64,000 nt of DNA, from the IMG/VR virus record IMGVR_UViG_3300021399_000103, positions 64,001 to 128,000 of that record, one strand, 5' to 3'. Source of the stretch: a virus. Taxonomy: Duplodnaviria; Caudoviricetes. A program made the position numbers and the translations under genes. The notes beneath the pieces were generated by a model that saw only the letters and a list, made by a program, of their open reading frames with translations, was not told the DNA's origin and did no database searches. Shown one piece after another: positions 3,001 to 60,430 of the stretch (positions within the stretch are counted from its first letter, which is position 1; the number at the start of each line of letters is the position of its first letter).

Positions 3001-6000
3001 TTAGATATTTATAAGAACTGAGAAAAAGCTGTTAAGTGGGTATGGTCTACTTCTACAAAAGATATTGCTTCTCTTGGTACTTATAATGAGATTGAAGTTG
3101 GTAATGAATATCAGCCAAATAAATATTATGTCTATAATGAATCAACAGGTGTCTATGAATTAGACTCTTCTCCTACTTACAGAGAAGGTATTGTCTACAG
3201 AAATAAAGTAAGCAGAGAAGAAACTGATACAGAAACAGGAGAGAGTATTACAATTGATGAATATGTAAATGCATTTGTTAGCGCAATTCCATATGTAAAA
3301 AATACATATTATATTAAAAATGCAGATAATACATATACCTTATCTGCCGATGATTTTGATGAGTCTTTAACATATTATCAGATTACAGAATATACAGATG
3401 AGCAACTAGCAACAAGAGCCGCAAGATTGGTAGAAAAAGATTCTGACGGAGTATTTGATCCTGCCGCTGAATATTATGTATATGATGGTAGTGTTCAGGT
3501 AAAAGATATTGTTACTGGAGTAGACACTCCAACAAAGAAGATTTCTTTAACTTCTGAATCTTATATTCCAAATACTTATTATAAAGGAAAAACTGTTGTT
3601 TATAATGGTAAGAGTTATAAGTATGATACTCAAGAATATCGTTCTGCAAAATTCTTTAATGAATTAGCAGATCATTTTGATATTGAATATCTTGCTACTT
3701 ATGTTATTATGACAGAAGTTTTTGAATGCTATGACTCTCGTGGAAAGAATTTAATGATGGCTTCTTGGGGCCCTCAAAAGGCTGGTGGAGATTACATCTG
3801 GTATCCAATTTTCTATGATATTGATACTCAGTTGGGTATTAATAATACAGGTATTCCTTCATTTGCATTTAATGTAGACGCAACAGAAGCTGGAAACTAT
3901 TCAACTTCTGATAGTATTCTTTGGATGAATTTCTATAATAGATTTAAAAAGTCTTATGTTTTACAGAAATATAGACATCTAAAGGGAATTACAACTGGAG
4001 TTCCTACAAGTTGGACTAGATTAGCTAATCCACCTCTTAAGAGTATTGACTTTATTGAGAGTTGGTATGAAACAGATCCAAACGTTTGCAATAGTATTGC
4101 AATGCGTGGTACAAGACCTATGATTGCAACAAATTTGGATGAATGGTATAAATATTTAACTATCACAAATCCAAAAGGTAAGTCTACTGGCGAAACAGGC
4201 TATATGGATGACAATGGAATCTTCATTGACGATAGTGGTAAAAATACTTACTTCTATGCATTACAGGGTGATAGATCTCAATCAAGACAACAGTTCTTGT
4301 CTAATCGTATTGAATATATTGACTCTTGGTTAAATGAGGGTAACTACCAGCGTGGTGGCGCTAATAGAATTAGAGGACGTGTTGCCGCAAACAATCCGGC
4401 AAAAACATCAGACCAATGGGTAGCGTCTGCGGAAGATCCTTACTTCAAGCCAAATGGTGAGAAATCACATGAATTTGATGCTGAATATTGGATTAATTTA
4501 ACTCCTGTTAGAAGTTCATACGTTACATTAAGTGATGATAATGAAGCTTATCCATCTCAGAAATATGATGGTATAAATCCAGTTAAATTTAATATTGACG
4601 CTATTGAGAATGGTGTTAAGAATAGTGCTAACTATCCTGAGCAGTTGTTATATATCTATGGTATGAATCAGATGGCTGATTTGGGTGAGATGCATAATTT
4701 ATACTGGCAAGAATTTGAATTATCTGGTGATGCTAGAAAATTAACGACTTTAAAATTAGGTTATGATGGTAAGGATAAAGATAATAATAACTGGTATAAT
4801 AGAAATATGAATCTTCCTACTATTCCTGGAAAGAAGCCTGAAGATGATTCTGGTTTTGGTTTACCTTTATTACAAGAAGTTAATTTAAGTAATATTACAA
4901 TTAATGCAGGCTCTCCTACATTGGATTTAACAAGTTGTGAAAAATTAAGAAATTTAAGAGCAACTGGTTCAAATTACCAAAATTTCTCATTTGCAGAAGG
5001 AGTAGCTTTAGATACATTATATTTACCAGACAGCATTACTCAACTACAATTAACAGAAGCCAACTTATTAACGAAACTTTTAACAGATTATCAAGCTCCT
5101 ACTAGAAATGCTTCTTCTGGAAAACTTGAAGCAAGACCTGGTTTATATATTGAAGGATTATTTGAAAATAATATTACAAATATTAATAATATTAAATTAC
5201 TTGGTGGCGGATTAGGATATGATAGTTATAAATTATTAGCTAAATGATATTCTATTAAAGATGCTTTAGATATTGTTGGAACAGACATTGGTAGTAATCA
5301 AATTACCATGACTAAAGTTAAATGAAGTCCATATATTCAATTAGTTGAAGGCGACACTTATATTTCAGCTGATTCTGCAAAATATTATATGGATGATGGT
5401 CACTATGGATTTGTTCCTTATTCATATAATAGAGATACTTTTAATGCTCAGGTACTAAGTGGAGAAATTTATAAATTAGATACTAGTATTCCTACTGCAA
5501 CGATTGATCAAATTGCGGACGTAGATATGCTTGCGCAAATGATTACAAATAATCATTATACAGCAGGCACTTCACAAGTTCCAAACATTACTGGTATTAT
5601 TTATGTAAATAATACTAATCCAATAGATGAATTATATATTAAAAATACTTTAGTTAAAAATTATCCTCAATTAAAATTCTTCTTTGCTAATGTAACAAAA
5701 TGTTATTCTGCAAAATTTGTTCTACCAAAAGAAGATGGTAGTTATTCTTATGTAAAATTTCAAGATGAAAATATTACAGAATTAACAATTCAAAAAATTA
5801 GTAGTTCAGATTGATTTGAAAATCCTTATAATTTATATGTTGCTGAGAAAGATAATTATGACTTCCATGGTTGGTCAACAACTAAAGATGATACTGGTTT
5901 AATTTCATCTGAAAATTGAGCTTCAGCCAAATCTTCAGTATTTGATCCAAACGTAAATGATTATATATTCTATGCTGTTTTTACTATTCATAATTATAAA

Positions 6001-7119
6001 ATGTCTTATTATGTTGGAACTGATTTAGTAGCAACAAAATATATTCCTTTTGGTTCTGTACTATCAGATCCTCAAATATTGCCATATTATACTGATGATT
6101 CATTAAATTTAACAGAAAATTATAAATTCTTAGGATGAACTCAAAATGAGAGAATTAAAATTGTGGAAAGAGCAAATCAGGCTAATCTTGTTGATTTTTC
6201 AAAAATGCTATCTGTTCAAGATTATAATTTTTACGCAGCATTTAAGAAACAATCTGTATATGATGAACCTACAGATTTAAAATATTTTGATTTTAGTCCT
6301 TTAACTTACGTAGACAAAGATCGTGTATCAGAAGCTTATGGTGATGATAGTTATAACATTACTGGATATATGATTTCTATTAAAGAAAATATGCAGTTAA
6401 AAGGTAAAATAACACTTCCTTCATATTATAATGGACTACCTGTTATAGCTATTGGCCCTACTTTTGGTAAAAATACAAATGCATCTGCGGGATGACAAGG
6501 CGGAGGTGCTGAAATTACCCATATTTTCTGAAAAGTTTCAGAATCAGAGCCTTGTAAATTAAGATATATTTCTAGTTATGCTTTTGCTGGAATGAATAAT
6601 GCACCTACAAATTTACAATATATTGAGCTTCCAGAAGGATTGCGCCATATTGACGGTTCAGCATTCTTCTGTGTTAAACATCTTAAAACAATTACTCCTA
6701 TTGTTAATGGCGATATTGAAGAAAATTCTATAATATTACCTTCAACGCTTAGATTTATTGGCGCCAACGCATTCAATGGCGCTTTTGCAGAAAGTGCTAC
6801 AATTAATCGAATTGTTATTCCGTCAGAAGTTGCTCGTTTAGGAAATAGAACTTTTGGTAATATTGATGCTATTGTTTCTTTAATTGAAATAGGTACTAAG
6901 GAACAAGGATCTTCTTTGGCGCAAATTGATGATGGTATTTTAGCAAATGGTGATAGACCAGGCAATCCAATAATTAATTATACAACAAGGGGATCAATAG
7001 AATCCTTTGTATTCTATTATAAATCACCAACTATAAGAGATGCGGTACAAGATATCGTAAATTTAAATTATATTAGAGCTAATAATGTTAGTTTTGTACC
7101 AGCAAATGATTTAGTCTAA
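1..7119 (+). CDS. Giant tail-associated protein (>2370 aa, 5'-truncated), with LamG-like region, CotH-like kinase domain, LRR and BspA-type LRR C-terminus; TGA=Trp
   Basis: ORF-track pieces 481, 898, 3427, 5389, 6163 and 6592 are all in frame 1 and separated only by TGA (11 seen: 340, 868, 2680, 3019, 5245, 5323, 5812, 5917, 6136, 6493, 6529). Contexts such as NWYNNG*ILD, AEC*EF and FLG*T fit Trp. CotH-like motifs QGTSS..YPRRNYK, DSRGKN, WYPIFYDIDT. Ends at TAA 7117-7119. Confidence 0.85.
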
Positions 7120-7138
7120 TTAAGAAAGGAGAAAAATA

Positions 7139-7360
7139 ATGAAAAAAACTGCTTTATATACTTATTTAGGCACCAACGGAACAATTACTTCTCCTGTTCA
7201 TCTTGAAGATATTTACTATATTTTAAGATATCGCTTAGAAGCGAGTGAAAATAAAGTCCTTGTAAATGATTCAACTGGTATAACAACTAAAACGATTGTT
7301 GTTTCTGCTGAAGAGGTAGATGACTGGAAAGAAATATATTCTAAGGTCAGTTCTAAATAA
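7139..7360 (+). CDS. Small hypothetical tail-module protein (73 aa)
   Basis: GAAAGGAG RBS, intact ORF directly after the giant gene. Confidence 0.75.
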   Translation: MKKTALYTYLGTNGTITSPVHLEDIYYILRYRLEASENKVLVNDSTGITTKTIVVSAEEVDDWKEIYSKVSSK

Positions 7361-7394
7361 TTTAACTTAATGAAAAATTAAGTATAATAGTTAA

Positions 7395-7419
7395 AGGGAG
7401 AGAGTTAATCTCTCTCCCT
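7395..7419 (+). terminator. Stem-loop (AGGGAGAGAG/CTCTCTCCCT), possible terminator or regulatory hairpin
   Basis: Perfect 10-bp inverted repeat between genes, preceded by TATAAT at 7383-7388. Confidence 0.5.
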
Positions 7420-7448
7420 CATTTTAATAAAGATAGGAGGAAAACTAA

Positions 7449-9803
7449 ATGATCACTTATATTGATAGTGAAAATAGACAAAACTATACGGTATTGTTTG
7501 ATAAAGCCTCTACTAAATTAGGTCTAAAGCCAATTATTGAAGAAGTTCGTGATCCAGAAACTCATGAAATAACTAAACATTATTTTAAGAGAAAATATGA
7601 TCAAACTACTCAGGCTTGAATTACAGTTGCTTGTGAACCTGATGAAATTGACACAGCAACAGATTCTATTTTAGTTGATGATGGAAATGGTAATAAAGTA
7701 CCTGTTCAGCAAATTACTAGTTTAAATGAATATTTTCAACATATTAGAGACTTAGCCGGTATGGCTATTGGTACAGGCCGTACTGGAACAGATCCATATT
7801 TTCTAAGACTTCCTCTTGATGAACCATTCTTTGAAATTAATGCTAATACTCGTGGGATTACAGTTCCTGGTGAATTAAGTCAGATTGCTGTAAGAGGTGA
7901 TAAATTAGCTGAAGTCGTATTCTTTAGAATTGATAGATATTATGATGCAGTAGATTTAAATACTCGTCATATTTATATTGAATGGGAATTACCAGATGGA
8001 ACAAAAGGTATTTCAAGAGATTTCTTGAGAGATACACAGTCTGAGAAAGATAAGATTATTTTTGGTTGGGCTATTGGTGAAGAATTAACAAAACAGGTCG
8101 GTACAATTAGATTTGCAGTTAGATTTGTTGAATGGTTTGATAATACTGTATTAGATCAGGATGATCGTAGAATTAATCTTGATACTGCTACAGAAGATAC
8201 TCAAATGCTTTATAGCTTTAGCTCATTGCCAGCAACAGTTTCAGTTGTTGACAGTTTAAATTATTCATTATTTGAAGATGATGAAGATTTAAAAGATTTT
8301 AATAGTTTAATTACAGAAGACAATATTGGAACTATGGTTCTTTATCTTGAAGATTCTGATCCAGATTCTGCTGATGAAACCGCACCAGAACTTGCGGCAT
8401 TACCTATTTATGTTAGAGATTTAACTCCAGCATTTTATGTTAATGCAAGCGCAATTGCGGAAAAAGAAAAAGAATATAAGATTAATCTTGTTAACGGTAA
8501 ACTTGAACTACGCGTTGAAGCTAATGCCGCAGATGGCGGACAAATTTCATATGTATTTGGACGTATTGCGCATACAGCCGACGAAGGTACGGGCGTAGCA
8601 GCAACCGGCGCAAGTGGTATTGTAGCTAAATATAAGTTTATTGAAGCTACAGATGTGTTTACAGATGAAGATGAGAGAACAGCAGAAAACTTTAATACAA
8701 AGAAAACTTTCTTTATGAAAGATTCTACTGGAATGTTAGCAGTTGTTAATGCTAATGATGCAGCTTTAGCAGTTGAAGAAGATCCAGATGTAGAATTCTT
8801 TGAAAGAGTTGCTTATGTTGAGGTACAATTACCAGGTCATTATTATGCTATTGCTGATAATAGAGCTGGTGGAAAGAAAGCTAATAGCGCATACAGTTCA
8901 ACATTCTATATTCCATGGGCAAGTAAGCCAGAAGTTGGGACAAAAATGGCTTCAAGATTTGTTGGCAATGAATTAGAATATACGTTAGCTGCCGATGAAA
9001 GTTTTAATGAAGCTTCTATTGATAATCGTGGTAAGACAAATTTGCGCACAAGTACTACAGTAGTTGCAGATACTAATTTAATTGAATTAAAGCCAACTGT
9101 TACTGCTGCAGAAACAGCTGGTTTAACATATACTTGGTATAAAAATGCTAATAACCATTTAATGGATAGTGGAGAAGTAGCTAATGCTGCTAATTACACT
9201 CGTCCAGAAGGATTAAAAGATGACGTTTGGGCTGCACAAGAAGCTACATTAATTGCAGATGCTGGATGGCAAGTTATTGAAGGTGCAACCGCACCTACTT
9301 ATGTAGCATCAGAACCTGGTTGCTATGCAGTTAAAGTCACAAATGATTTTAATAACAGCGTAACAACAACAGATTTATTAGATGCAGGTGCTTGTCGTGT
9401 AACAGGAATGCCTAAGATTCCATCAATTGATTGGACTTCATTTAAGGCATCAGCTAGTGCCGGCGCAATTCCAAATGCTATTGATATTGAATTAAAAGAT
9501 ATTAATGGCGATGCTGTTGATTATGATAAGATTGAATATCAGTGGCATAAAGTTACAATCCCAGATGCTGAACATCCAGGACTAGCAGCAGATTTAGAAC
9601 TTGCAACAGAAGATGATATGACTTCTCCAGCTTCTCCGGCAGAAGGAATGACTTTTGATGCTGAAGGCAAGGCTAAGATTCCATTCCAGCCTAAAGTTGC
9701 AGGTGCTTTCTTCTTAGAAGTTAGAAATACATTAAATGGTGCTACTGTTATTTATAATGGTGGTGAAGATGAATTAATTGGTACAATTCAGATTTCTGCC
9801 TAA
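7449..9803 (+). CDS. Baseplate/tail protein with BppU-N-like domain and Ig-like folds (784 aa; one TGA=Trp)
   Basis: AGGAGG RBS, ATG 7449 in frame with ORF 7761 across TGA 7617. Motif pattern F.IDRYYD.VDL...IIFGW.I...T...G.I.FAVRF. Confidence 0.7.
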
Positions 9804-9822
9804 TAGAAAGGAGGTTTAATTA

Positions 9823-10641
9823 ATGATTACAACTCCTGAAGAATATTTTAAATATTTATGGGGTATTGAAATCCAAGAACCTCTTTTAGATGAAAATGGT
9901 AATGAACAATTAGATGAAGAGGGAAATGTTATTATGGTGACAAAAAATCCTTATAATAACAAACCTCTTCTTTCTATTATATTACCATCTGATGAGAGAA
10001 CTTTTGATGTCGATCTTTCGTCAAGAACAATTTCAGTACCTACTTTTTTAAGTGTAGCAAAAGATCACAGAGCAGAAACAGTTTACTTTTTAGTAGATCG
10101 TTTCTTTGAATATAAAGATTTAGCAACAACATCATGTATGATTGAATTTATCAATGCAGAAGGTAAAGGTGGATTTTATCCAGTACCTTTCTATGACATT
10201 TCTTCATATCCAAGATATTTTTCTGAAGAAAATGGAGAACAGGTCGTGCATGAAGCCAAGATGATTATACCTTGGTGCATTGAAGGTGATGTTACTGCGG
10301 CCGCAGGTGAAGTTCAGTTTATTTTAAGATTCTATGAGTTAGATGAGACAAAAACTGAATTAGTTTATAATGTCAGAACACAAGTTGCTACTGGACAAGT
10401 TCTAGTTGGAATGGATCCAGGTGTTTTAGATGAGGCCGCTGCAGATTTAGAAGCTAATTTCGCACAACAGATTAATGATAAAATTGAACATGCAACAGCA
10501 ACAATTTATTGAACTGATTTGCCAGATAGCGAATTTAGGTCTGATTTTCAACCATCAAAATCAACGAAAAATTCTACAAATTATTCTAATGGACTTGAAA
10601 ATGCGTCACCAATGAGATTATGATTTAAGGATTCCGATTAA
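9823..10641 (+). CDS. BppU-N-like baseplate protein (272 aa; two TGA=Trp)
   Basis: Similar FLVDRFF..KDL / IIPW.I...VT...G.VQF.LRF pattern to the previous gene. Reads through TGA 10510 and 10621 to TAA 10639-10641. Confidence 0.7.
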
Positions 10642-10659
10642 GGAATCCTTATTTTTTTT
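10627..10659 (+). terminator. Rho-independent terminator
   Basis: AAGGATTCC/GGAATCCTT stem followed by a T-run. Confidence 0.75.
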
Positions 10660-10767
10660 GGTCAAATGGAGGAAAACAAATATATTGTTTTTTTAAGTAT
10701 TTTAGCAAAGAGAATTAACTCTTATAGAGAGTTTTATATATAATAAAGGAGAAAGGAGCGAGCGCAA

Positions 10768-13700
10768 ATGGCAAATGAATTAATTAGAATGAAGTCTGGT
10801 TTAATCAAAAACATTGAAAAAGATGAAACTGGACATTCCCCAGTTAATATTCAAGCTGGAACAATATATTTTGCCGTTGATGATGATAAAGAAACTGGTA
10901 AAATTTTATATGATGTAGATAGTACTCACCGCGTTGTCATGAGCACTCAAGCTGAATACGCCGATGAAGCTGGTAAAACTATAGGTATTACTGGTATATA
11001 TGCAGTTAAAGGTATGCAGACTAAAGCAACTAGTGTTTGAACTGGTGCAATTGAAGGTGTTAATGAGCTTTTTGATGGATTAACAATTGCTTATTATTTA
11101 CCTTATAATGGAACATCAACTGCGGCCACATTAGATTTAACTCTTGCGAATGGAGATTCAACAGGTCCTATTAACGTGTATTATACAGCTACTACAAGAG
11201 TAACAACTCATTATTCTGCTGGATCTACAATTATATTAACTTATTGGTCTGCTGGTTCTATTAAAGTGAGTGGAACTGCTACAGCAGAGGCAAGATGAAC
11301 AAGAGCTGATTATGATAATACTATTACTTATCAATTAAGACATATTTATGGATCATATACAGCTGCTGCTGCTTTATATCGTTATCAAGTTTTATTAACA
11401 AAAGATGAAACATCTTTACTTCCTGTTAACAGTGTAAATAATAATACAGGAACATCAAAAACTTTAACAACAGAATCATTTGATCCTTTTGGTCCAATTT
11501 ATTACTATAATGCAACCACCAATATTGCAGCTGATGGAGCGATTACCGCAGGTAATTTATTTGAACAAGTACTTGCTGATTTAAGGTATTCTTTTAATAC
11601 TGGGACAACTTTAACTGCAAGAAAAGCTATTTATATAGTCGCAATACCTCAATCAAATGGATTGGCAAAATTAGATTCTACTCCAATTACGCAAACTTTA
11701 CCAACTGCTAAAGATGGAAAAATTTATATTTATTTAGGTCAAGTTTATTATGAAAATAGTGGTAATTGTTACCGTGTAGAATTAGAGGTTAATCATCCTG
11801 TATATTATTATAAAAATGGAAAAATTGCTTTATATACAGGAGAACCAATAGCTACATCATCAAACACTGGATTAATGTCGGCAGATGATAAAATAAAATT
11901 AGATGGAATTGCAGAAGAAGCTACTAATACAACAATTTTTGCAACTTCGCCAATTATTGCTAGTGCCTCTACTGGTGCAGTAACTTTATCACATGCAGCA
12001 AGTGGAGTCGCTGCTAATACTTATGGAACTACAGCAACCACAGCGATTAATCCATCTTTTGGCGATACTTTTAGTGTACCTGGATTTAAAGTAAATACAA
12101 CTGGACACATTACATCGGCGGGTGCACATACTGTTAAAATACCTTCTACCTTAGCCACAAGCGAGGTAGATGGATTAATGAGTCATACCGACAAAGGAAA
12201 TTTTGATCTTGGTGTAACAATTGCTGGTAATCAAATTGATATTGGCGATGAACTTAGCGCTACAGATTTACGCACTTCATTAGGATTATCTAATGCAATG
12301 CATTTTATTGGACATGCTACTGTCTCAATTGGAGATAATACTACAACAGATCCTGAGATTTTAGATTATGATTTTGGCGTTAATGGAGCCAATGCTACGC
12401 CAGGAGACGTTATTATAGATAGTACTACTAATTATGAATATGTATGGTCTTCTCTTGGTCGATGAGAAAGGCTTGGTGGAGATAGCAGTTATAAGGTAGT
12501 TCAGAGTGCAGTAAGTGATTTTACTTATAATGAATCAACTACAACTACTACTTTTGTCTCTGCAGTGACTCAAAATACAAATGGTGTAATTACTGTTACT
12601 AAACGCAAATTACCAACATATAATAATTACACTCATCCAACTTATACGGCAAAAACAGCAGCGGCTGTTAAAGTAGGAAATGATAGTACTGGTCACGTGG
12701 TAATTGGAGATGCTCTTACTAAAAGTGATGTTGGTTTAAGTAATGTAACAAATGATGCTCAAATTCCAAAATCAATAGGAACTGCTAAAGGAGATATAAT
12801 TTATTTTAGTGCTTCTGGAACCCCTACAAGACTTGCAGTTGGAGGAAATGGCACTGTATTAAAAGTTAATTCTAGTGGTGTTCCTGCTTGAGCTTCAGAT
12901 AGTGATAGCCATTATACAACTCATCTATATGCAGGTGCTAGCGATGGAAATACTAATGCCGCAACAACAAATGGCAATACTTATTTAATTGTAACTGATA
13001 ATACTACTGCTAGAGATAGAAGAAAAATTGCTGGTACTGGTGCTACAACAGTTACTTCAGATGCAAACGGCAATATTACAATTGATTCAACAAATACTAC
13101 TTATACATTTGATGGAACATATGATTCTTCTACCAATAAAGCAGCTACTGTTTCTACTGTAACAAATGCAATAAATGCTTTAGATGGAAATTTAAATAGT
13201 ACTACTCCAGGAGCGGGAAAGACACTAACTGCCTTTAGTCAGACCAATGGAAAAGTCAGTGCGACATTTGGAAATATTAGTATTACGAAATCTCAAATTA
13301 GTGATTTCCCAACTACAATGACACCAGCAAGTCATACACATGGAAAGATTACGAATGATGGTAAAATTGCGAGTACAGATAATGTAACTATTGCAAATAA
13401 CGATAGATTAATTATATCAGATGCTTCTGATAGTTATATTTTAAAAAATACTTCTATTGTATTTGATGGCTCAACAACTAATAAAGCATTAACTCCAAAA
13501 GGTACGTGAGAACCGTTTAATAATTATAGTTTACCACTTGCCGCAAATGGAACTAGAGGTGGTATTCAAATTGGATATTCTTCAAGTGGGAAAAATTATG
13601 CGGTACAATTGAGTAGTGAAAAAGCTTTTGTAAACGTACCTTGGACTGATACTAAACAAAATATTACATTACAAACTACTAAAAAGGGATATATAACAGC

Positions 13701-13872
13701 TGTTGAGACAACTCCTACTGGTACTGCGGCAGCCCATGAAGGTATTGCTGATACTGGAGTTTATTTAACGACAACTGCTGGTCAAATAAATGCAAAAACT
13801 TATAAAGTAGATGAAGAAGTAACTTTAGAATATAATACAACAACGAAATCATTAGATTTTATTTTTGCATAG
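10768..13872 (+). CDS. Long tail fibre protein A (1034 aa; TGA=Trp)
   Basis: Fragments 10768, 11662, 12565, 13318 and 13609 share one frame, split by TGA. Fibre motifs GLMSADDKIKLDGI, KSDVGLSNV.N, HTHG.ITNDG. Confidence 0.8.
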
Positions 13873-13914
13873 TTAAGGGAGAGTTTGACTCTCCTTTAAC
13901 TTTTATGATATAAT
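13871..13914 (+). promoter_or_regulatory. Hairpin overlapping a sigma-A-type promoter (copy 1)
   Basis: Stem AGTTAAGGGAGAGT/ACTCTCCTTTAACT; TTGACT 13885-13890, 18-nt spacer, TGn-TATAAT 13909-13914. Confidence 0.65.
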
Positions 13915-13934
13915 AAGAGAGAAAGGAGATCGCT

Positions 13935-16130
13935 ATGGCGTTAAGAGTATGATTGCCGTTAAATGGCGATCTTGAAAATAAAGGGATTAGTAATATTTCA
14001 ATTTCTACGAATAATTTTTCTATTAATAATTTAGGAAAGTTAGGCAAATGTTATCAGGGTCATGGTTTAACTCATTTGTCTCAAGAAATATTAAATAATA
14101 ATTGAAGTATTGCTTTATGGGTTAAAGAAACTAGTGCTTGAAGTCAATATAATCAAATTCTTTTCTGTAAAAATTTAAAAGATTCTAGTGATTGCCAAAT
14201 TTATTTTTCTATTATAAATGGTAAATCTTTAAATCTTGGAATAAATGGTCCAAGTGGAACTGGTTCTTATAACTATAATTTTAATTTAAATACCTGATAT
14301 CATGTAGCAGCAACTTATGATGGATTAAATTATTGTTTATATATTAATGGAACTTTAGTAAAAACAGGTACTTGTACAACAGCATTTAATGCAAATAAAT
14401 TAAATCTTGGATTTGGATGTAGAAGTGCAAATGATAATGCTACATCTGGAACAGGTCAAACCAGCACTCAATGTTTTAATGATTTTAGGTTATATGACCA
14501 TTGTCTTTCTCCATTAGAAGTAAAAGAAATTTCGCAAGGGTTAATTTTACATTATAAATTAAATGGATTTAGTGGTGGAGTAGGTGAAAATCTATTACCT
14601 AATACAAGTTTTAATGGAATATCTCAAAAATATACTTTAAATAGCGGTACTGAGGGAGGATTTAGGTATGTACCTATTTCTGTTAATAGAAGCACCTTAT
14701 ATACAATAAGTTGTTATTTACGAGGTAATGCCAATATGACATTGTATCGTATTTGTTCTGGAGGTAATGAATCAACTCCTTGAGTAAATAGAAGTGATAT
14801 GTCTGAAACAGAATATAAATATTTTAGTATTACTTTTACTTCTCCAGCAGCAAAAGATATTTCTCAAATTTATATATGCACACGATATGGGACTTCTAAT
14901 TCTCAAACTGGAGATTGATTTGAAATTAAACCATATAGTTTAAAAATGGAACAAGGTTCAATTGCAACTCCTTGAATTCCCGTATTATCAGAAATTGGTA
15001 TAGATACTACTAAAATTGTAGATTCTTCTGGTTATGGAAATGATGGAACTGTTATTGACTCATTAACAACTGAGATAAGTAATACCGATGGAAGATATTT
15101 AATAGCAACTAAATTTCCCACAAATACTGCACATATTCAATTACCAGTAATTACTTATAGTAATTTTGGTTCATCATATACTTTTTCTTGATGAGAATAT
15201 TTAACTACTGTTAGTAGTAGTCCAATGCCATGAGGTTTTAGTGATGGTAATAGATTAAATTGTTATCATGTAAATACAAGTATGTTATGTTGAAATACAA
15301 GTAATGGAACAAGCAATCCATTTGAACCAAATATAACTAGTACAAGTTTATTAAATGGATGACATCATTTAGTGATAACTGGAAATGGAACGGTCACTAA
15401 TTTATATATAGATGGTGAATATAAAGCAAAAGCAAAAACCTATGTTGGATTAACTGGAACTCAAATATGACTAAGTGGTTGAGCAAATGCTACTGGTTAT
15501 TCAATGGTTAATAATAAAATGTCAGATTTCCGTATTTACGCAACCGCTCTCAGCGCAGAAGATATAGCCACGTTATATCATACTCCGGCGCAAATAGATA
15601 ATTTAGGTGGAGTACATGGATTTGAAATGAATGAAATAAGTAGTAATATTTTAACCTTAAAATCATTTGAACAAGGCGGTCTTGGCGATGCAAATGGTGC
15701 TGAAGTCGCTTTAAATACGAGAATACGAACTCTATACTTACCTATTATTCCAAACGCGGAGTATAAAACTTTTACTTCTTCTGGTTTTGTAGTTAGAGGA
15801 GTTCATTTTTATACTGAAAATCAATCTTGAATTTCATACTCATCTGGAAATTCTCAAACAATGAATTTTATTATACCCGAATCTTGTTATTATATAAGGA
15901 TTGTTTTCCAAAGAACAAATGCAAATACAGAATTACTTCTTAGTAATTTAAATTTAGTTAATCCTGTTTTAACTGGAATTATTGAAAAAAATTCATCATT
16001 GTTAAATGATGAATATAATATAAATATAAATAAAAATGGCATTATTTATGGAAATCATTTTAATATATCTAAAAAAAGTGGTATTGATAAAACGGGTATT
16101 ATTGAAGCAACAAATTTTATAGAAAAATAA
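13935..16130 (+). CDS. LamG/ConA-like receptor-binding or tail protein 1 (731 aa; about 15 TGA=Trp)
   Basis: GAAAGGAG RBS; starts MALRV*LPLNGDL; LamG motifs *YHVAATYDG, *HHLVITG, SDFRIYATALS; in frame with track ORFs 15504 and 15861. Confidence 0.8.
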
Positions 16131-16142
16131 GGAGGTGCTAGG

Positions 16143-19067
16143 ATGGCACAATTAAAGGATACATTAATTTCTGGTGATTTGCGTGTCACTGGCACGATAT
16201 ATGGTGATGTTCCATTAAATGATTTGGTTGATGCTGATGATTTAAAAGCTATCGAAGCATTAAGTGGAACATCTGGTTTATTAAAAAAGACAGCTGCAAA
16301 TACCTGAACATTAGATACAAATGCTTATACAACAAGTTCTGGCGTAACTAGTGTTAGAGTACAAGCTACAAGTCCAGTAGTATCAAGTGTTAATACGGCA
16401 CAAACATCTACACTTAATACTACTATTAGTTTAGCTGATAATTATGGAGATACTAAAAATCCATATGCAAGTAAAACAGCACGATATGTACTTGCGGCGC
16501 CTGCTTCGGCGAACGGAGTGCCTACCTTTCGCGCACTTACCAATGCAGATGTAGGATTAGGTAATGTTGAAAATACAAAACTTTCAACATGAGCAGGTTC
16601 TACTAATATTACAACTCTTGGAACAATTACGACAGGTACTATTCCATGAGCTAATATTAGCGGTAAACCAAGCCAAGCTACTGCTTGACCTAATTGAAGT
16701 CAAATACAACAAAATGGTGCTGAAAATATTAATGAAGGCAATTCTGATTTAACTGATAATACAGAAATTTTTACTTCATATGCAAGTAATAATGGATTTG
16801 CTGATACAAATGCAAAAGGTGTTGTTTATCGTAGAGATGCTATTCATGTATATAATTATATAAAAGCAAAAACAGATACTTTATATGCGGCTAAGAGTCA
16901 TGCTCATGGCAATATTACTAATGATGGTAAAGTTGGTACAGCGGCTAATCAGGCAGTTTATACTACAACAAATGGCGTAGTAACGGCAGGAACATTGCCG
17001 ATTGCAGCAGGAGGTACTGGTGCAAGTAATAAACGCACAGCAGGATTAATTTATGATTGGACTGCAGTAGTGCAAGGACAAAAATGATCTAGACTCTGCT
17101 ATATTCCATGTTCTACATCCGTTACTGGTACTAATTTTATTTTAAATGTTCGAGGAACAAGAGGAAGTGTTGTTTATAATTATACCTTTATGATTACTAC
17201 ACATCATGCATCAAAATGCCATATTACAGCACTTGCTTGTTCAAATTATTCTGCGATAAAGATTAGAGGAGTAGTTGATTCTAGTGGAAATTGTTATATA
17301 GAATTATATGATGAAGCTAATAGTATTGCTTCAGGCACCACTCAAAGTGTATCTTGTCATTTATTCATTTTAACAAAGGGCACAACAGAGCCAACTTTAT
17401 ATACTGCCTTTACGGATGGTGCGACATTACCATCAAATTTTACTGCAGTGACTTTAGAATTAAAAGCAGCGGCTGGGATTCAAACTTCTGGAACATACTA
17501 TGGCACTTGGAGCGGTTCCGCAATTCCTGTTGCTAATGGAGGAACTGGAGCTACTACTGCAGCTGCCGCAAGAACCAATTTAGGTATTACTCCTGCTAAT
17601 ATTGGTGCTGCTACTAGTGGACATAATCATGATTCTACTTATGTTAATGTATCTGGTGATACTATGACAGGTGCTCTTACCCTTAGTGGAGCACCGACCG
17701 CAAATCTTCACGCAGCAACTAAGCAATATGTAGATCAATCATTTGCGGCTAATGACGCAATGATCTTTAAAGGTACTATTGGTTCATCTGGAGCTACAGT
17801 AACTGCATTGCCAGCTACGCACAGTATAGGTTGAACTTATAGGGTATTAACAGCTGGAACTTACGCAGGAGTTAAGTGCGAAATTGGTGATTTAATTATT
17901 TGTATTACTGATGGAACAGCTGCTAATGATGCGCATTGAACAGTAGCGCAAACTAATTTAGATGGTGCAGTAATTGGACCAGCTAGTGCAACGAGCGGCA
18001 ACATCGCATTATTCGATGGAACTACTGGTAAATTAATTAAGAATAGTAGCTATTCTCCAAGCAGTTTTTCCGCAGCGGGTCATACTCATAGTAGTATAGT
18101 AACTGTTGGAGATCAAAGAAATAACGATACAACCCCTAATAGTTATAATAATAATTTTATTTTTCAAGGACTAAAAACTAATAGTAAGATTGGGTCTCCT
18201 ACATCAGATAATTATTCTTACGTAATTGGTTTAAGAGGATGAAGTGACTCAAGTGGTGGTAATTCTCATGAATTGGCTTTTAATAATACTGGTATTTTTT
18301 GACGTAGCGGAGCAACAACAGCTTGAGGCAATTGATATCGTATATATACAACAGCAAATAAACCAACTGCCGCAGATGTAGGGTTGGGTAATGTAAAAAA
18401 TCAAGCAATTACAGTAACTTCTTCAAGTGTAAGCGATGGGAGTATTACTTTCAGTAAATATGAACATCCAACAACTTCTGGTAATAAGCATATTCCAAGT
18501 GGCGGATCAACTGGACAATTTTTAGGTTGAGATTCAGATGGAACTGCAAAATGAGCAACTCCACCTGATACTAAAAATACTGCTGGTTCAACTAATAGCA
18601 ATAGTAAATTATATTTAATTGGTGCTACCTCACAAGCTGCAAGTGTAACAACATACAGTGATGAAGAAGTATATACAACTAATGGTACATTAAGCGCAAA
18701 AATACTTTCCACTACAGCCGGTGTCAATGCAAATACGGCTAATTCTGGCACTGCTGGAGGTGTTTCTTTATATAGCACATCGCCAACTGATTATGGTGTT
18801 ACTATGCGTAACACTGGTACATCTTCAGGACAACTCGGAAAACATGGATATGTTCAAGGAGATTGGGCTGGGTATTTCTGCTTTACTGGAGCTACCAATA
18901 GAGGATATATATTTAGACATGCTGGCGCTAACGTAGCTTCAATTAGTGGATTAGGTCATGCTGTTTTTAATGGTTCAGTTACTGTTGGTGGTAATGCAGC
19001 AAATACTTCTGGTGGAAGAATGGAGTATGATGCAACAGTTGAAGCAATTGGATTTACATTTAATTAG
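16143..19067 (+). CDS. Tail fibre protein B (974 aa; TGA=Trp)
   Basis: AGGAGG RBS; MAQLKDTLISGDLRVTG; in frame with ORFs 17190 and 18804; motifs ANGGTGATTAAAARTNLG, GDTMTGAL, KPTAADVGL. Confidence 0.8.
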
Positions 19068-30190: not shown

Positions 30191-31777
30191 ATGAGCTTAA
30201 AAGGGATCGATATTAGTAATTGGCAAAAAAATATCAATTTATCTGCTATTAATGCCGATTTCATTATCGTAAAATCTTCAGAAGGGATTGGTTGAACTGA
30301 TCCAAGTTTTTCAAAATTATATAATGCGGCTAAAAATACAGGGAAAAAATTAGGGGTATATCATTTTGCTAGACCAACAGCTAATAATGATCCCGTTAAA
30401 GAAGCCGATAGCTTTCTTTCTGTTATTAGAAAAGAAGATGTTATCGGCAAAGCAATTTTGGTTTTAGACTGAGAAGCTGAAAATAAACAAAATACTGTTT
30501 GAGCTAAAAAATGGCTTGATCGTGTTTATGCGCAAACTGGTGTAAAACCTATGATTTATATGAGCGAAAGCGTTGTTAATGCTTACAATTGAAGTGCTGT
30601 CGCTAATGCGGGATATGCGCTTTGAGTTGCTAAATATAGAGATAATGCTGTTGATTATAATTATAATATGTCTAATGCTGGAACTGCTCCAAAAGTCAAA
30701 CATTGAAAAGAATATAAAATGTGACAATGAACTTCAGCTGGTATTTTAAATGGATATAGCGGAAGATTAGATTGTAATGAGTTTTATGGAACGGCTGCGG
30801 ATTGAGATGTGCTGGCCGGTAAAACGGTCGCACCAGCCCCGGTTAAGAGTTCCTACACAGCGCCGGGCGCATACCTAACTCCGCAAGCATGATACAATAT
30901 GACTATTGGGAAGGGGTATAATGTTGATGGCGCATATGGCAACCAATGTTGGGATTATTTTGCTTATTTTATTAAGTATTTTGGTCTTGGATTAAGTACT
31001 TATTGTGCTACTACTGGATATGTAATTGATTTATGGAATCTAAGAGATAGATACAATTATTCAAAACATTTTACATATATTACAGATCCAAAAAAACTTC
31101 AAAATGGAGACTGGTTAATTTGATCTAAAGGTTCATCTTGCCCATTATCACATGTTGGTATGTATTGGAACGGTCAAGTTGTAGGACAAAACCAGGGTGG
31201 TTTAAGATATGTCAATGCGCGCACCTTAAAATTAGATATAGCCGGCGCATTTAGATGGAAAGCTTGGGAAACAGAAACTCAAAAAGAAACAACTGATTTA
31301 TCCAAGTATACAGATCAGCAATTAGCTGAAATGGTATTACAAGGCACTTTTGGAAATGGAGATATTCGTAAAGCATTACTTGGTTCAAGATACAGTGCAG
31401 TCCAAAAGATTGTAAATAATCTTGTTTCTAATAAAAAATCAAATGAAGAAATTGCTAATGAAGTACTTCAAGGCAAGTGGGGCAATGGAGATGAGCGTAA
31501 AAAGAAGCTCACCGCTGCTGGATATAATTACTCTACTATTCAGTCATTAGTTAATAATTTAGTAAAAAATCAGACTAAAGTTAATAAAACATTAAAGGTT
31601 GGCGCAAAAGTTAGAATTAAACAAGGCGCTCTTGATTTAAATACTAAGAGAAAATATGCTTCATTTGTTTATAGCACAAATTATATTGTAAAATCTATGA
31701 GTAATAATAGAATCGTATTTGGAACACCTTCTGTCGTTATTGGCGCAACCGATAAGAGTAATATTATTTTAATATAG
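30191..31777 (+). CDS. Endolysin 2: GH25 muramidase + CHAP-like domain + Cpl-7-like repeats (528 aa; about 11 TGA=Trp)
   Basis: MSLKGIDISNWQ, VKSSEG, GVYHFA, LD*E, M*Q*TS and LDCN are GH25 hallmarks; DGAYGNQCWD and HVGM are CHAP-like; in frame with ORFs 30899 and 31160. Confidence 0.88.
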
Positions 31778-31787
31778 GAGGAGCGAT

Positions 31788-32078
31788 ATGGAGATTTATA
31801 GCTTATTAGCAATATCTTTGTTAATCGAAGGATTGATTACTTATGGACAAACAATAATTAAACAAAAAAAGATTCAATGACAAATTGTAGTGGCAATTTG
31901 TGTGGCTTTCATTTTTTGTTATAATTCAAACATTAATTTATTTCCAATGTTAGGATTTACTGAAAAGTATCCAATTATTGGCACTATTGCAACAGCGATT
32001 ATGCTTTCAAGAGGATCTAATTATATGTTTGAATTTTATAATCAACTTAATTCATGAAGAAATAGTGGACTTCAATAA
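31788..32078 (+). CDS. Holin-like membrane protein (96 aa; 2 TGA=Trp)
   Basis: AGGAGG RBS; about three hydrophobic segments, SRGSNY motif; directly after the endolysin. Not in the ORF track. Confidence 0.7.
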
Positions 32079-32099
32079 AAAAAGTCCACTATTTTTTTT
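32061..32099 (+). terminator. Rho-independent terminator closing the lysis unit
   Basis: AATAGTGGACTT/AAGTCCACTATT stem plus T-run. Confidence 0.75.
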
Positions 32100-32126
32100 G
32101 ACTTTTCTAGAAAATTTTTGTATAAT
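32098..32126 (+). promoter_or_regulatory. Near-consensus sigma-A promoter for the small ORF-hsp20-tRNA unit
   Basis: TTGACT, 17 nt, TATAAT. Confidence 0.75.
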
Positions 32127-32149
32127 AACAATTGTAAGGAGAGAGATAT

Positions 32150-32326
32150 ATGGAGTTATATTTAAGAGATTATGAACAATTAAAAAAGGTAGAGAACTTC
32201 TTGTTTAGATTTATATATCCAGAATCTTTTACCTTACAAATTTTTATAGAAGATACTAATGACCATTTTAATTATGAAACTATTCATAATGATTTAGCTG
32301 GTGGATTAGTTCTTGTTACTTTTTAG
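32150..32326 (+). CDS. Small hypothetical protein (58 aa)
   Basis: AAGGAG RBS; ATG 32150 to TAG 32324-32326; no TGA. Confidence 0.55.
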   Translation: MELYLRDYEQLKKVENFLFRFIYPESFTLQIFIEDTNDHFNYETIHNDLAGGLVLVTF

Positions 32327-32339
32327 GAGGATTTTTAAT

Positions 32340-32714
32340 ATGATGTTTGATTTAGATTCTTTTTTCGATTGGGATAAACCCGCTTACACTTTTAGCCGTC
32401 CAGTGCACGATATGAAACCTTATAGTATCAAAACTCTTAGTGATAGAGTTGTATTAGTACATAATATCGTCGGGGTTAAGGAGGATGATATTAAGGTTGA
32501 TGTTGTTCATGAAGATGATGGCAGAGACAGATTAGTAATTGAAGGCGTTACTCATAATGATGTCTTAAATTATGATTATAAAGTAAGCTCTAAGTTTGAT
32601 ATTAAAGCTGATATGTTTAAGTCAGTTACTTATGAAGTTAAAGATGGATTGCTTTATATCAATCTTTATAAAAAAGAACCAGAAGTAACTAAATTAATAG
32701 TTACTAAGGCGTAG
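32340..32714 (+). CDS. Hsp20/alpha-crystallin family small heat-shock protein
   Basis: AGGAGG RBS; GVKEDDIKV...LVIEG and ..KDGLLYI.L motifs. Confidence 0.75.
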   Translation: MMFDLDSFFDWDKPAYTFSRPVHDMKPYSIKTLSDRVVLVHNIVGVKEDDIKVDVVHEDDGRDRLVIEGVTHNDVLNYDYKVSSKFDIKADMFKSVTYEVKDGLLYINLYKKEPEVTKLIVTKA

Positions 32715-32746
32715 AGAATATTTTAGAAGTTCTCTACTATTATTAT

Positions 32747-33014
32747 AGGGGAGTAGTTTCAATGGTAAAACGATGGTCTTCAACCTGAAGTTTTTCAAAA
32801 TTGGTGCCTTATTATAGGAATATAGTAAGTGGAGGCGATGATATCGGTGAACCCTGTAAAATGGGAATACCGAGGGAACGAAAGGCCCGTAGAGACTAGA
32901 TAATCGCCCAGACAGAACGCCTGAAGATATAGTCCAGACTACAAACAGAAGTGGCGGTGAAAACCGTAGTAGTACGCAACACCATATTTGGGGGTTCGAA
33001 TCCCTCCTCCCCTG
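32747..33014 (+). tRNA. tRNA-Trp with UCA anticodon (reads UGA), interrupted by a group I intron; exons 32747-32780 and 32977-33014
   Basis: Acceptor stem AGGGGAG/CTCCCCT, discriminator G, D-stem GTTT/AAAC, anticodon stem ATGGT/ACCAT, spliced loop CT-TCA-AC, T-arm GGGGG-TTCGAAT-CCCTC. A1-U72 and G73 match bacterial tRNA-Trp identity elements. CCA not encoded. Confidence 0.9.
32781..32976 (+). ncRNA. Group I intron (196 nt, no ORF) in the tRNA anticodon
   Basis: P3 GGCGAT 32834-39/ATCGCC 32903-08; P4 TCGGT 32844-48/ACCGA 32869-73; P7 GACTA 32894-98/TAGTC 32930-34; R-like GTAGAGACTA and S-like AAGATATAGTCC; follows an exon U and ends in G. Confidence 0.9.
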
Positions 33015-33058
33015 CTGTTTATAACGATCGGTTAGATCGAGGAATAAGGAGATAAATA

Positions 33059-33466
33059 ATGACAACACAAATGTTACAGGATATTTTCTTTACAGTCTTA
33101 ATTCCATTGATTGGAATCTTATGTACTTATGGAATCGCTTTTATGCATAAGAAAATAAAAGAGTTACAAGACAATGTAAAAAATGAATTATTTACTAAAT
33201 ATTCAGATATGCTTGTTAGTATTATTGAAACTTGCGTTATTGCCACAAATCAAACCTATGTTGAAGAATTAAAGAAACAGGGTAGATTTGGTCCAGAAGA
33301 GCATGATATCGCATATCATAAAACATTCGATGCAGTAAAAGCATTAATGACTGAAGAAATGCAAAAAGTCCTTGGAGAAGTATATAAAGATATTGATTTC
33401 TATATTTCTCAATTAATTCAAGAAAGTGTAAATGTTGTAAAATTTACTCAAAGTACAAAAGAATAA
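33059..33466 (+). CDS. Holin-like protein (LL-H-like, one N-terminal TM)
   Basis: AAGGAG RBS; N-terminal hydrophobic helix; V.ATNQTYVEELKK.G.F motif. Confidence 0.6.
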   Translation: MTTQMLQDIFFTVLIPLIGILCTYGIAFMHKKIKELQDNVKNELFTKYSDMLVSIIETCVIATNQTYVEELKKQGRFGPEEHDIAYHKTFDAVKALMTEEMQKVLGEVYKDIDFYISQLIQESVNVVKFTQSTKE

Positions 33467-33508
33467 AAAAAATAGGGATAGCTTATTATTTAGCTATCCC
33501 TATTTTTT
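33465..33508. terminator. Bidirectional terminator where the two gene arms converge
   Basis: AATAGGGATAGCT/AGCTATCCCTATT stem flanked by A-run and T-run. Confidence 0.85.
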
Positions 33509-34088
33509 ATTTATGTGGCTTCATATCTTCATCTGTTACAAACAATTCATCATCAATATGATCTACTTGTCTTGATTCGCTCTCTTTTAGAATATGTAAA
33601 GCAATCGCTTTATCGTAATATAAATCACCTTGGCTATTTCCTCCAAGAGAATTGTAGATTTTATGAAGTTCTGTTAATCTATCAAATTGATACTGAGTCA
33701 TTCAACCTTGTGAAATATATTTTTTACAAGTATTAATTAATTGATATTTATAAAAAGTAAGATTTTGTTCTTTTAATAACTTAAAATCTTTTTCTACTTC
33801 TCTTAGATTATTAACAGCTTCTCAATACATCTTTTGTCAATAATCAAATTTTGATTGTGCTTCTGTTTGATTCGCATTAATAGATTCATTAATTTTTTGT
33901 TGATAAGTAGTAATTGTTTTATTAACAATTTCTACAATATGTTTATCAACAGCTTGTTCATCAAAGTTTTTTGCTTTTTGTTCTGTTTGTTCGCCTTTCT
34001 TAACCATACGGTCTCAAAGATATCTAACAGCAAATCCACAGAACGCAATTATAATATAACTAAAAACACTCTCTGCTGTAAATGTCAT
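33507..34088 (-). CDS. Membrane-anchored, possibly holin/lysis-associated protein (193 aa; 4 TGA=Trp)
   Basis: GGAGG RBS, ATG 34088 in frame with track ORF 33507-33701; N-terminal TM; Y.SLGGNSQG motif. Confidence 0.6.
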
Positions 34089-34142: not shown

Positions 34143-34667
34143 TTATTCTGACCAATCAAAGCCTTCTTCTTTTTTGTTTGCGGCGATCGCTATAACCGAT
34201 CGGTCAAGCGAGCTCGCGCAAGTCCCAATACAGATACTATCGCATTCATCTTGAGTTGCTTTTACATTATACTTCTGGAGAACAAACTCTTGAGCATTGC
34301 GTTTTTGCTCTGGTCTTGTTCTACCTTTAATTTGTAATTTAGATTTTCAAGTTGAAGAGGGTATAACTTCATAATTTTTATTAAGCTCTACGGCAGTCAT
34401 AAGAACTACACCATAAACATTTGCTAATACTTTGAATGTTTTTACGTTGTTTCCAACAGATGATTGTAATTGTATATCTTCAAAGGCAATCGTATCTATA
34501 TTTCACTCTTGGACTTTATTTTTTATAAAATTATGAATTGTAACTAAACGTTCCCCAATATCATCTTGATTCGTTGTGAGATGACCTCAATCTTTTAATT
34601 CTCCGTTAATAAATACACTTCATCCAGATACTCTACTCGCTTGGTCAAGCGCAAGAATATTACTCAT
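34143..34667 (-). CDS. RuvC-like Holliday junction resolvase (174 aa; 4 TGA=Trp)
   Basis: MSNILALDQASRVSG*, IAFEDIQ, PSST*K and DECDSICIG carry the RuvC acidic catalytic pattern. Not in the ORF track. Confidence 0.8.
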
Positions 34668-35025
34668 CAATTAAATCCAATAGACCTTCATCATATAGGT
34701 AATCTTCAAAATCATCCCAAAGATCAAGCCTTTCTTTAAATCCTATTGGTTCACAATAAGCATCAAGAAAATCTGAAACTACTTTAAAGTTAGGCTCTTT
34801 TCCAATACTATATTTTGTTGCTAAATTGATCATTGCGTTTTGCACATAAATATAGTCTTGATCTTGTTTTGTTAGAATACCATGACCCCAGTCATCTTTA
34901 TTATGCTTGAGACGTTGAACCAAAACCGCCTGTGCGGGTGTTAGTTGCTTCATCTCCTTCGGCTTTTTCATATTTTTTAATAATACCCTGACCAATTTTA
35001 TCTCCAGCCTCAATAATAATATCAA
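34660..35025 (-). CDS. Hypothetical protein (true start probably downstream of the listed one)
   Basis: Fills the gap between dUTPase and RuvC; 5' part overlaps dUTPase. Confidence 0.45.
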   Translation of the reverse strand: MILLLRLEIKLVRVLLKNMKKPKEMKQLTPAQAVLVQRLKHNKDDWGHGILTKQDQDYIYVQNAMINLATKYSIGKEPNFKVVSDFLDAYCEPIGFKERLDLWDDFEDYLYDEGLLDLIDE

Positions 35026-59287: not shown

Positions 59288-60430
59288 TTAATCAAATCAT
59301 TCTATTTTTGAACCATTAATTTGTGTTGATTTTCTTTTTTTCGCTTGATGAACAGCTTGTCTTGAAACCCCTAAATATCTACCAGCTTCTGAAAAAGAAT
59401 CAAACGGTATTTCATCTATAATACAGATAAATGGTACTTCTATTTCTTCTAATGGTTCATCTGTATAATACAAAAAGTATTTACTTTTATAACGAGTTTT
59501 TTCTCTTAAAGCCTTTTGGATTCCAGTGGTTTTGAATCCTTCTAATTGGATATCTTTTACTGTTTTATAAGTAGATTCCAATTCGCCGCCTGCGTTATAT
59601 ACAGCAATAAAACCTTTTGGATTTCCTATATACTCACCCCTTCGCTGAAGCGTTCTCAATGTAAATAACCGCTCATTTGGAGTGTAATAATACATAGGTG
59701 GTTTTTTATGTTCTATAGAATAGTTATTAAATACGTCATCATTTTGTTTATAAATTTTTATTTTTGTACATATTGGATATTCATTATTTGGTTTTGGATA
59801 TTCTAAAATATCAGAAGCAGGTGTTAAAGTTTTATCTAAACGTAATATATAAATAAATTGTTTAGTTCATGTTTTTCTAACATCTGAATATAAACTGCAT
59901 ATGCCTTCTGTAAATGGAATTGATTCAGGGCAATTATGCTTATATAAATACCATAAAGTTGTTAAGTGACGTTCTTGCCCATCCAATAGCCAAAATCCTT
60001 CAGAAATAAAATATCCTAAATATTCTCAATTTGTTGCTTGATAAATATATCCATAATTACCTTCTTTGCGGCCGGAGTAAGAAACTAGTAACCGCACATT
60101 TGGGCGGTATTTTTTTATTCATTTAATACCAAGAGAAATAGCTTGTGATTCTGAATTTTTCCCTTCTGAATCAGCCATACAAAATCTATTTAATTCAAGG
60201 TATTCTGATTTTTCTATTGGTTCTTTAACATATCTATCAAGTTTAATTTTTTCTTGAAAAGAACAACCTCATTGGAGTACTCCTACTAAAAGATTATCTT
60301 CTTTTCGGAATACTCCAAGATTAAGAATTGCTTTTTTAAATCCTACCCCAGAATAATGTCAAGCAGATGTAAATTGATATGCTTTTGACGAGTTTATCTG
60401 GTCTATAAAATATCTTTTATTTTCAATCAT
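59288..60430 (-). CDS. Mom-family (GNAT-like) adenine modification protein with a C-terminal DNA-binding-like extension (380 aa; 6 TGA=Trp)
   Basis: Manual translation: *HYSG, LELNRFCM, NSESQAIS, LVSYS...G..GYIYQATN*EYLG, EYPK. No TAA/TAG between ATG 60430 and TAA 59288-59290; contains track ORF 59297-59695. Confidence 0.75.

Follow-up and report, generated by a model that had tools for sequence, protein, structure and literature searches.

The tRNA-Trp(UCA) of this gut phage, the only UCA tRNA that we find in it, is interrupted in its anticodon by a 196-nt group I intron, and this intron is probably a homing element that has lost its endonuclease and persists within an essential suppressor tRNA. 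The window analyzed here is the whole stretch of 64,000 nucleotides that makes up positions 64001-128000 of the phage record (G000; 176,419 bases, 33% GC, 94% complete). A sequence-only reading of the window had proposed that splicing of the intron gates a change of genetic code from code 11 to code 4 and thereby times late gene expression. As the main explanation this is not supported: because recoded relatives manage without the intron, it looks like the leftover of a mobile element and not like a timed switch.

The split tRNA gene and its intron

Exon 1 of the tRNA (32747-32780, plus strand) ends at U34, as placed by inspection, ARAGORN and folding, and exon 2 (32977-33014, plus strand) ends, by inspection and ARAGORN, at the discriminator G73, the CCA end not being encoded. 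ARAGORN in its default mode calls no tRNA anywhere in the window, as had been foreseen for scans that are unaware of introns. Its intron-aware mode calls a split UCA tRNA at 32747-33015 and, after excision of 32781-32976, the program returns a clean cloverleaf for a 72-nt tRNA with the loop CU-UCA-AC. Folding of the spliced RNA gives this same cloverleaf as the structure of lowest energy, at -22.1 kcal/mol. A blind scan of junctions found that ARAGORN accepts nearly any loop, and the program alone therefore cannot fix the junction; several relatives' split tRNAs are labeled wrongly by the intron-aware mode, as Cys, Leu or Ala. At the level of sequence the junction is fixed in three ways: by inspection, a single junction yields a 7-nt loop while placing U ahead of the 5′ cut and G ahead of the 3′ cut; it is specified by the guide at 32801-32806, whose pairing with U34 continues for three pairs inside the intron and which can bind the same three bases to exon 2; and an identical anticodon loop is found in three orthologues that occupy this gene slot and lack the intron.

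A 7-bp acceptor stem, a short variable loop, A1-U72 and G73 are features that fit the identity rules of tRNA-Trp and not those of tRNA-Sec or tRNA-Gly. The spliced tRNA has A1-U72, G2-C71, G73 and the short variable loop, and both the long acceptor stem and the long variable arm of a tRNA-Sec are absent. Its UCA anticodon co-occurs with in-frame TGA at Trp sites, and we take it to be the phage's opal-decoding tRNA-Trp, which would suppress UGA in a genome where the recoding itself is observed. A second UCA tRNA was not found in the 94%-complete genome, of which 6% may be missing. The record does hold a CCA-anticodon tRNA-Trp (143984-144063 of G000; contig L426; 22 bits), whose D arm is replaced by a GC-rich hairpin and whose acceptor stem is weak; because this gene is aberrant, the split UCA gene is the sole well-formed Trp tRNA of the phage. 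A tmRNA is encoded at 147276-147625 of the record.

The intron (32781-32976, plus strand, like all of its elements) lies between anticodon positions 34 and 35 and has no ORF. Its P1 region (32781-32806) comprises a P1 extension (32781-32783), a stub hairpin (32786-32797) that occupies the place of the homing endonuclease ORF of relatives, and an internal guide (32801-32806) in which G32804 faces U34, U32805 faces U33 as a mismatch and G32806 faces C32; the same guide forms a 3-bp P10 with exon 2. A P2 hairpin with a GNRA loop follows (32808-32829; 9/9 pairs covary), then the catalytic core (32834-32935), with P3 (32834-39/32903-08), P4 (32844-48/32869-73), a short P5 without P5abc, P6, P8 and a P7 (32892-98/32930-35) whose G-binding pair is intact, and lastly, by alignment and covariation, P9.0, P9 and the terminal G at 32976 (32938-32976). 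Pattern scans yielded about 35 distinct homologous introns, 30 of which make up the covariation set; across these 30, 98.1% of the cells of the P2-P9 structure are paired, against 34-46% in slid controls, and 24 of the 43 core pairs show compensatory change, two P7 pairs included; the covariation supports a P3-P9 core with its P3/P7 pseudoknot. U34.G is present in 33/33 introns and the full 3-bp P10 in 28/33, and the tRNA exons of the homologues diverge yet retain a paired cloverleaf.

Rfam, to which the sequence-only reading had looked for confirmation, gave a divided answer: scans with all families found no intron match, and a search with the single family Intron_gpI (RF00028) matched 32771-32954 with an E-value of 9.5e-5 and a score of 22.7 bits, where the family threshold is 50. 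Bacterial sequences are missing from the seed of this model, and Williams worked with 18-20 bits; the shortfall is therefore no argument against membership. The insert is, as judged from its conserved structure, a group I intron, and would splice itself in a guanosine-dependent manner. No joint that skips 32781-32976 was seen in metatranscriptome contigs, which rarely hold an RNA of 72 nt and derive from RNA libraries that may hold DNA. On the cloverleaf and its coordinates, the group I core and the UCA anticodon at the junction, the sequence-only reading has thus proved correct. Its view that the primary transcript of this tRNA would be inactive is supported as well, since the gene is interrupted at 34/35.

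Among known systems, the intron shares with the 34/35 introns of tRNA-Leu(UAA) (“Leu.3Ug”, IC3; Williams, 2020, 10.1101/2020.01.27.920355) the insertion after U34, the exon end C32-U33-U34, a short P1 with U.G, a GNRA loop on P2, the lack of P5abc and the P7-P9 seed motifs; by eye, it resembles the gpI_bact_tRNA seed in having P2, in lacking P5abc and in the motifs of its 3′ half. It differs from them in its host, here a phage suppressor tRNA-Trp(UCA), and in the U.U mismatch of its P1. In the accessible part of that paper, 21 classes of bacterial tRNA introns are distinguished and the seed has no Trp or Sec class.

TGA recoding and the unit that carries the tRNA

Translation with code 4 in place of code 11 raises ORF coverage from 0.72 to 0.96. 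The late genes on the plus strand hold 237 TGA and 121 TGG codons and the replication genes on the minus strand 20 and 147 (Fisher p 3e-33), the 20 TGA of the replication arm being confined to five genes, a Mom-family gene among them. When 102 TGA codons were aligned with one relative, 76 faced Trp or TGA (39 opposite TGG, 37 opposite TGA) and one faced Gly. TGA encodes Trp in this phage. As a stop codon it is rare, ending 3 of 43 code-11 ORFs of the early arm, two of which are pieces of recoded genes and the third of which has TAA directly after. The early genes shun TGA in both roles, as sense codon and as stop, so that on the side of the phage no phase of code 11 exists from which it would have to move, and only the supply of suppressor matters. 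That the host uses code 4 throughout was considered and rejected because the replication genes avoid TGA.

Recoding follows late function and not strand. RuvC (34143-34670, minus strand; 4 in-frame TGA), a membrane protein (33507-34088, minus strand; 4 TGA) and the Mom-family gene (59288-60430, minus strand; 6 TGA) are recoded within a minus-strand arm that is otherwise TGA-free, and the GH25 endolysin (30191-31777, plus strand; 11 in-frame TGA) exemplifies the suppressor-dependent genes of the plus strand. Neither a release factor nor a class Ib synthetase or TrpRS was found in the 94%-complete genome (6% may be missing). The gene that opens the late arm, outside the window (15710-16786 of G000; L425:211-1284), matches PHROG 5767, “sigma factor”, at E 6e-50, with no Pfam sigma match; it contains in-frame TGA or TAG in each of the 11 recoded relatives tested and in neither of two relatives with the standard code. 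This gene is a candidate master gate of late expression, its sigma label being that of PHROG. The terminal regions of the record (1-15700 and 173300-176419) very densely hold more than 55 sigma-A consensus promoters.

The phage shares with the recoded gut phages of Borges et al. and Yutin et al. (10.1101/2021.08.26.457843; PMC7886860) TGA-to-Trp recoding of structural and lysis genes next to standard-code replication genes, scarcity of TGA as a stop, and the use of codes 11, 4 and 15 among relatives, as in the Agate clade, to which the code usage of its terminase-based relatives (all three codes) suggests a likeness. Suppressor introns, however, are unreported in those studies, in which suppressors were detected in 35% of TGA-recoded genomes by tRNAscan-SE in bacterial mode (Borges et al., 10.1101/2021.08.26.457843); one jumbo-phage paper mentions unspecified tRNA introns in recoded phages. 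Our literature search turned up no paper in which the opal suppressor of a phage is interrupted by a group I intron.

The split tRNA stands away from the main tRNA cluster of the phage, in a unit of its own on the plus strand. A terminator-like hairpin with a T-run (32061-32099; z -3.3) separates this unit from the upstream lysis genes, and a sigma-A-type promoter consensus (32098-32126; 11/12), kept in relatives and of the type shared with the dnaE and gyrB promoters, precedes it. There follow a 58-aa ORF of no known family (32150-32326), an Hsp20-like ORF (32343-32714; weak Pfam match, PHROG 432) that marks the tRNA slot in relatives, the tRNA itself and, as the final gene, a holin-like ORF (33059-33466); none of the three ORFs contains TGA. 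A bidirectional terminator-like site (33467-33508) lies at the end of the unit. Promoter and gene order are conserved in relatives, and the 58-aa and Hsp20-like ORFs are TGA-free in every one checked. Transcription of the unit is weakly indicated by contigs from three gut metatranscriptomes that span 32149-32714, of which one is free of mismatches. Promoter class was rejected as a divider of early from late genes, as the late arm too begins at a sigma-A consensus. Ten nucleotides 5′ of the tRNA, a conserved hairpin (32711-32737, plus strand) overlaps the stop codon of the Hsp20-like ORF; it is present in all slot relatives, a hairpin of other sequence stands in the same place in two contigs (L009 and L013), and it is possibly a processing or attenuation signal.

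Relatives and sister introns

Among 19 loci anchored by the Hsp20-like ORF, the intron is present in 15 and absent in 4. The Hsp20-like protein of one intronless phage is 93% identical to that of the window, and two relatives, G016 with the intron and G017 without it, have near-identical exons. The tree of the flanking proteins requires two intron changes with weak support, the starred branches forcing one. Intronless relatives are recoded as well: G002, checked genome-wide, shows the same late bias as the window phage, with 151/179 against 13/147, and in G025 and G017 the terminase or RuvC gene contains TGA. Whether split or intact, a UCA tRNA was found in 8/8 TGA-recoded records examined and in 0/11 standard-code and 0/6 TAG-recoded near-complete relatives, with intronless UCA genes sought by an exact pattern that can miss divergent ones; the split form accounts for 5 of the 8. 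Co-occurrence of the tRNA with TGA recoding, for which the sequence-only reading had suggested a search of related phages, is borne out. Its central proposal, that splicing times the code change, is not supported, since G002, G025 and G017 are recoded without the intron, the first of them likewise in its late genes. What goes with recoding in these records is thus the presence of a suppressor, split or intact, and not that of the intron.

Further afield, G001, a phage with a different gene order, has the same intron-containing tRNA within its main tRNA cluster, many other viral contigs commonly have UCA tRNAs that lack an intron, and INPHARED phages gave no real match. Twelve contigs show a second full anticodon-like arm in exon 2 or the variable region, directly after the UCA arm, whose loop reads CCA and whose stems covary; many related UCA tRNAs have this second arm, with or without the intron, and the tRNA of the window lacks it. 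This arm could be a handle for the host TrpRS or an alternative fold.

Nine sister introns at the same site have a P1 loop of 390-430 nt; one intron (L323) counted as single-arm with an endonuclease merely ends at the edge of its contig. Of six sister-intron ORFs tested, five are PD-(D/E)XK proteins of PF11645 above cut-off and one is HNH-like, and one matches I-Ssp6803I (PDB 2OST; E 0.0011), the only solved relative. The P1 loops of sister introns thus hold the same endonuclease family as the Synechocystis tRNA-fMet intron (I-Ssp6803I, PF11645), from which the window intron differs in lacking an ORF and in its site, 34/35 of tRNA-Trp(UCA) and not 33/34 of tRNA-fMet. In G016 an internal deletion has left the two ends of the endonuclease insert. 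The marks of a mobile intron, present in sister introns, are missing from the window intron, which has no ORF, and from its genome, in which no PF11645 protein was found (94% complete). Because sister introns bear endonucleases, the intron can be explained without a regulatory role, and Rfam scans found no riboswitch or other known RNA regulator near it; both results speak against a splicing-gated switch.

The Trp(UCA) introns all group together in a single supported clade, outside which fall the tRNA-Leu(UAA) and tRNA-Ile(UAU) introns that also follow U34. Group I introns of the latter kind were seen at 34/35 of tRNA-Leu(UAA) or tRNA-Ile(UAU) in six contigs (in L137 at 5749-6302), one with a PF11645 ORF. 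The endonuclease ORFs of three introns (in L137, L144 and L160) contain in-frame TGA and therefore depend on the very tRNA that their own intron interrupts. A subfamily of three contigs (L334, L335 and L118) has a structured insert of ~115 nt in the P6 loop. Dozens of tRNA-Asn(GUU) and tRNA-Asp(GUC) genes in Patescibacteria contigs (L079-L275) have related group I introns after position 35, which form a separate clade and have the P4 motif alone in common with those described here.

Homing, delay and the origin of the suppressor

Homing introns pass through a cycle in which a conserved essential site is invaded, the endonuclease is lost and the intron is occasionally lost exactly or replaced. 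The intron of the window would have come by past homing into such a site, and would persist because only its exact loss is viable and splicing renders it nearly harmless. The host sigma-A RNA polymerase would transcribe the TGA-free unit from the promoter and between the insulating elements seen in the sequence. The anticodon stem would then bring the splice sites together, and the intron, whose fold is attested by covariation, would excise itself at U34/C35. Host enzymes would trim the tRNA, add CCA and, as no phage TrpRS was found, charge it with Trp, and the mature tRNA would compete with host RF2 at UGA, so that the recoded late genes are read through. Late timing would then reflect the build-up of suppressor, with or without an intron. 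Several observations count against a homing relic: most alleles in the slot have the intron, independent losses have weak support (one change being forced by the starred branches), and the guide base facing U33 is a U in 20/20 members when one change would give a Watson-Crick pair, which is more than a neutral relic needs, though the members may be one clade.

This guide base is what most invites a regulatory reading. All 20 members of the single-arm subfamily have U, not A, opposite U33. In surrogate precursors modeled as secondary structure without tertiary contacts, the splicing-competent fold lies 2.4-9 kcal/mol above the ensemble in 17/17 U.U members (5.8 in the window) and within 0.6 kcal/mol in 3/4 members with a fully paired guide. 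The mismatch may be the tolerated inheritance of one clade or a selected brake. If a brake, the intron would be a domesticated delay element, whose slow or conditional splicing in this subfamily holds back the mature suppressor, and with it the translation of late genes and lysis. We regard this as doubtful, despite the points in its favor beyond the shared mismatch and its modeled cost: the window tRNA is the sole UCA tRNA found, and its promoter is of the replication-gene type, so that without a delay the suppressor would appear early. Against it, intronless relatives retain the same recoding; the energy penalty is due almost entirely to the single guide base, in a model that omits tertiary contacts; and P1 does form when the RNA is folded locally with exon 2 left out. 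The idea that the P1 loop has evolved an inhibitory hairpin was tried and rejected, shuffled loops being equally inhibitory, and with the penalty resting on one base there is therefore no sign of an evolved alternative hairpin. Splicing of a group I intron in Clostridioides difficile is reportedly controlled by a c-di-GMP-II riboswitch, a precedent for regulated splicing in bacteria; the window intron, by contrast, has no riboswitch or sensor domain, and Rfam scans found no ligand sensor.

Another reading, compatible with a homing relic, is that the intron made and carried the suppressor: group I chemistry prefers U before the 5′ splice site, and an intron at 34/35 of a tRNA-Trp therefore favors U34, after which homing with co-conversion of flanks, an established process (PMC3943268), would spread the UCA allele and block reversion to CCA. 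U34 is indeed present in every 34/35 tRNA host seen (Leu UAA, Ile UAU, Trp UCA), endonuclease-bearing members stand in TGA-recoded contexts, and the intron-containing tRNA is common to unlike phages; yet the abundance of intronless UCA tRNAs in other viral contigs means that a suppressor can arise without an intron, and tRNA-Leu introns with C-G splice sites are known (Williams, 2020), so that we hold this origin possible, if on the unlikely side. It is very improbable that the gene is dead, with an intron that no longer splices and late genes that rely on host read-through of UGA. The weak P1 and the lack of a spliced product in metatranscriptome contigs, where a 72-nt RNA is rarely held, would fit such a gene, but the core is invariant or compensatory across 30 homologues, the cloverleaf stays paired as exons diverge, and leaky read-through would hardly yield genes with 10-24 TGA each. 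Scarcely credible, finally, is a spliced tRNA for an amino acid other than Trp, be it Sec or, as in code 25, Gly: ARAGORN under code 11 does answer SeC, from the anticodon alone, but its acceptor stem of 7 bp, its short variable loop and the bases A1-U72 and G73 are those of Trp, and TGA aligns with Trp.

With a homing relic in an essential suppressor as the preferred reading, the split gene bears on a wider puzzle, namely that a suppressor had appeared to be missing from most TGA-recoded phages, one having been detected in 35% of genomes (Borges et al.). Split genes would account for part of it; as our sample is small and partly selected for tRNAs, the 5 split genes among 8 recoded records show a route and not a rate. 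Natural alleles with and without the intron, and with weak or paired guides, open the model of timed recoding to a direct test. Should homing be able to give rise to a UCA allele or to spread one, changes of genetic code would have a selfish element as a vehicle.
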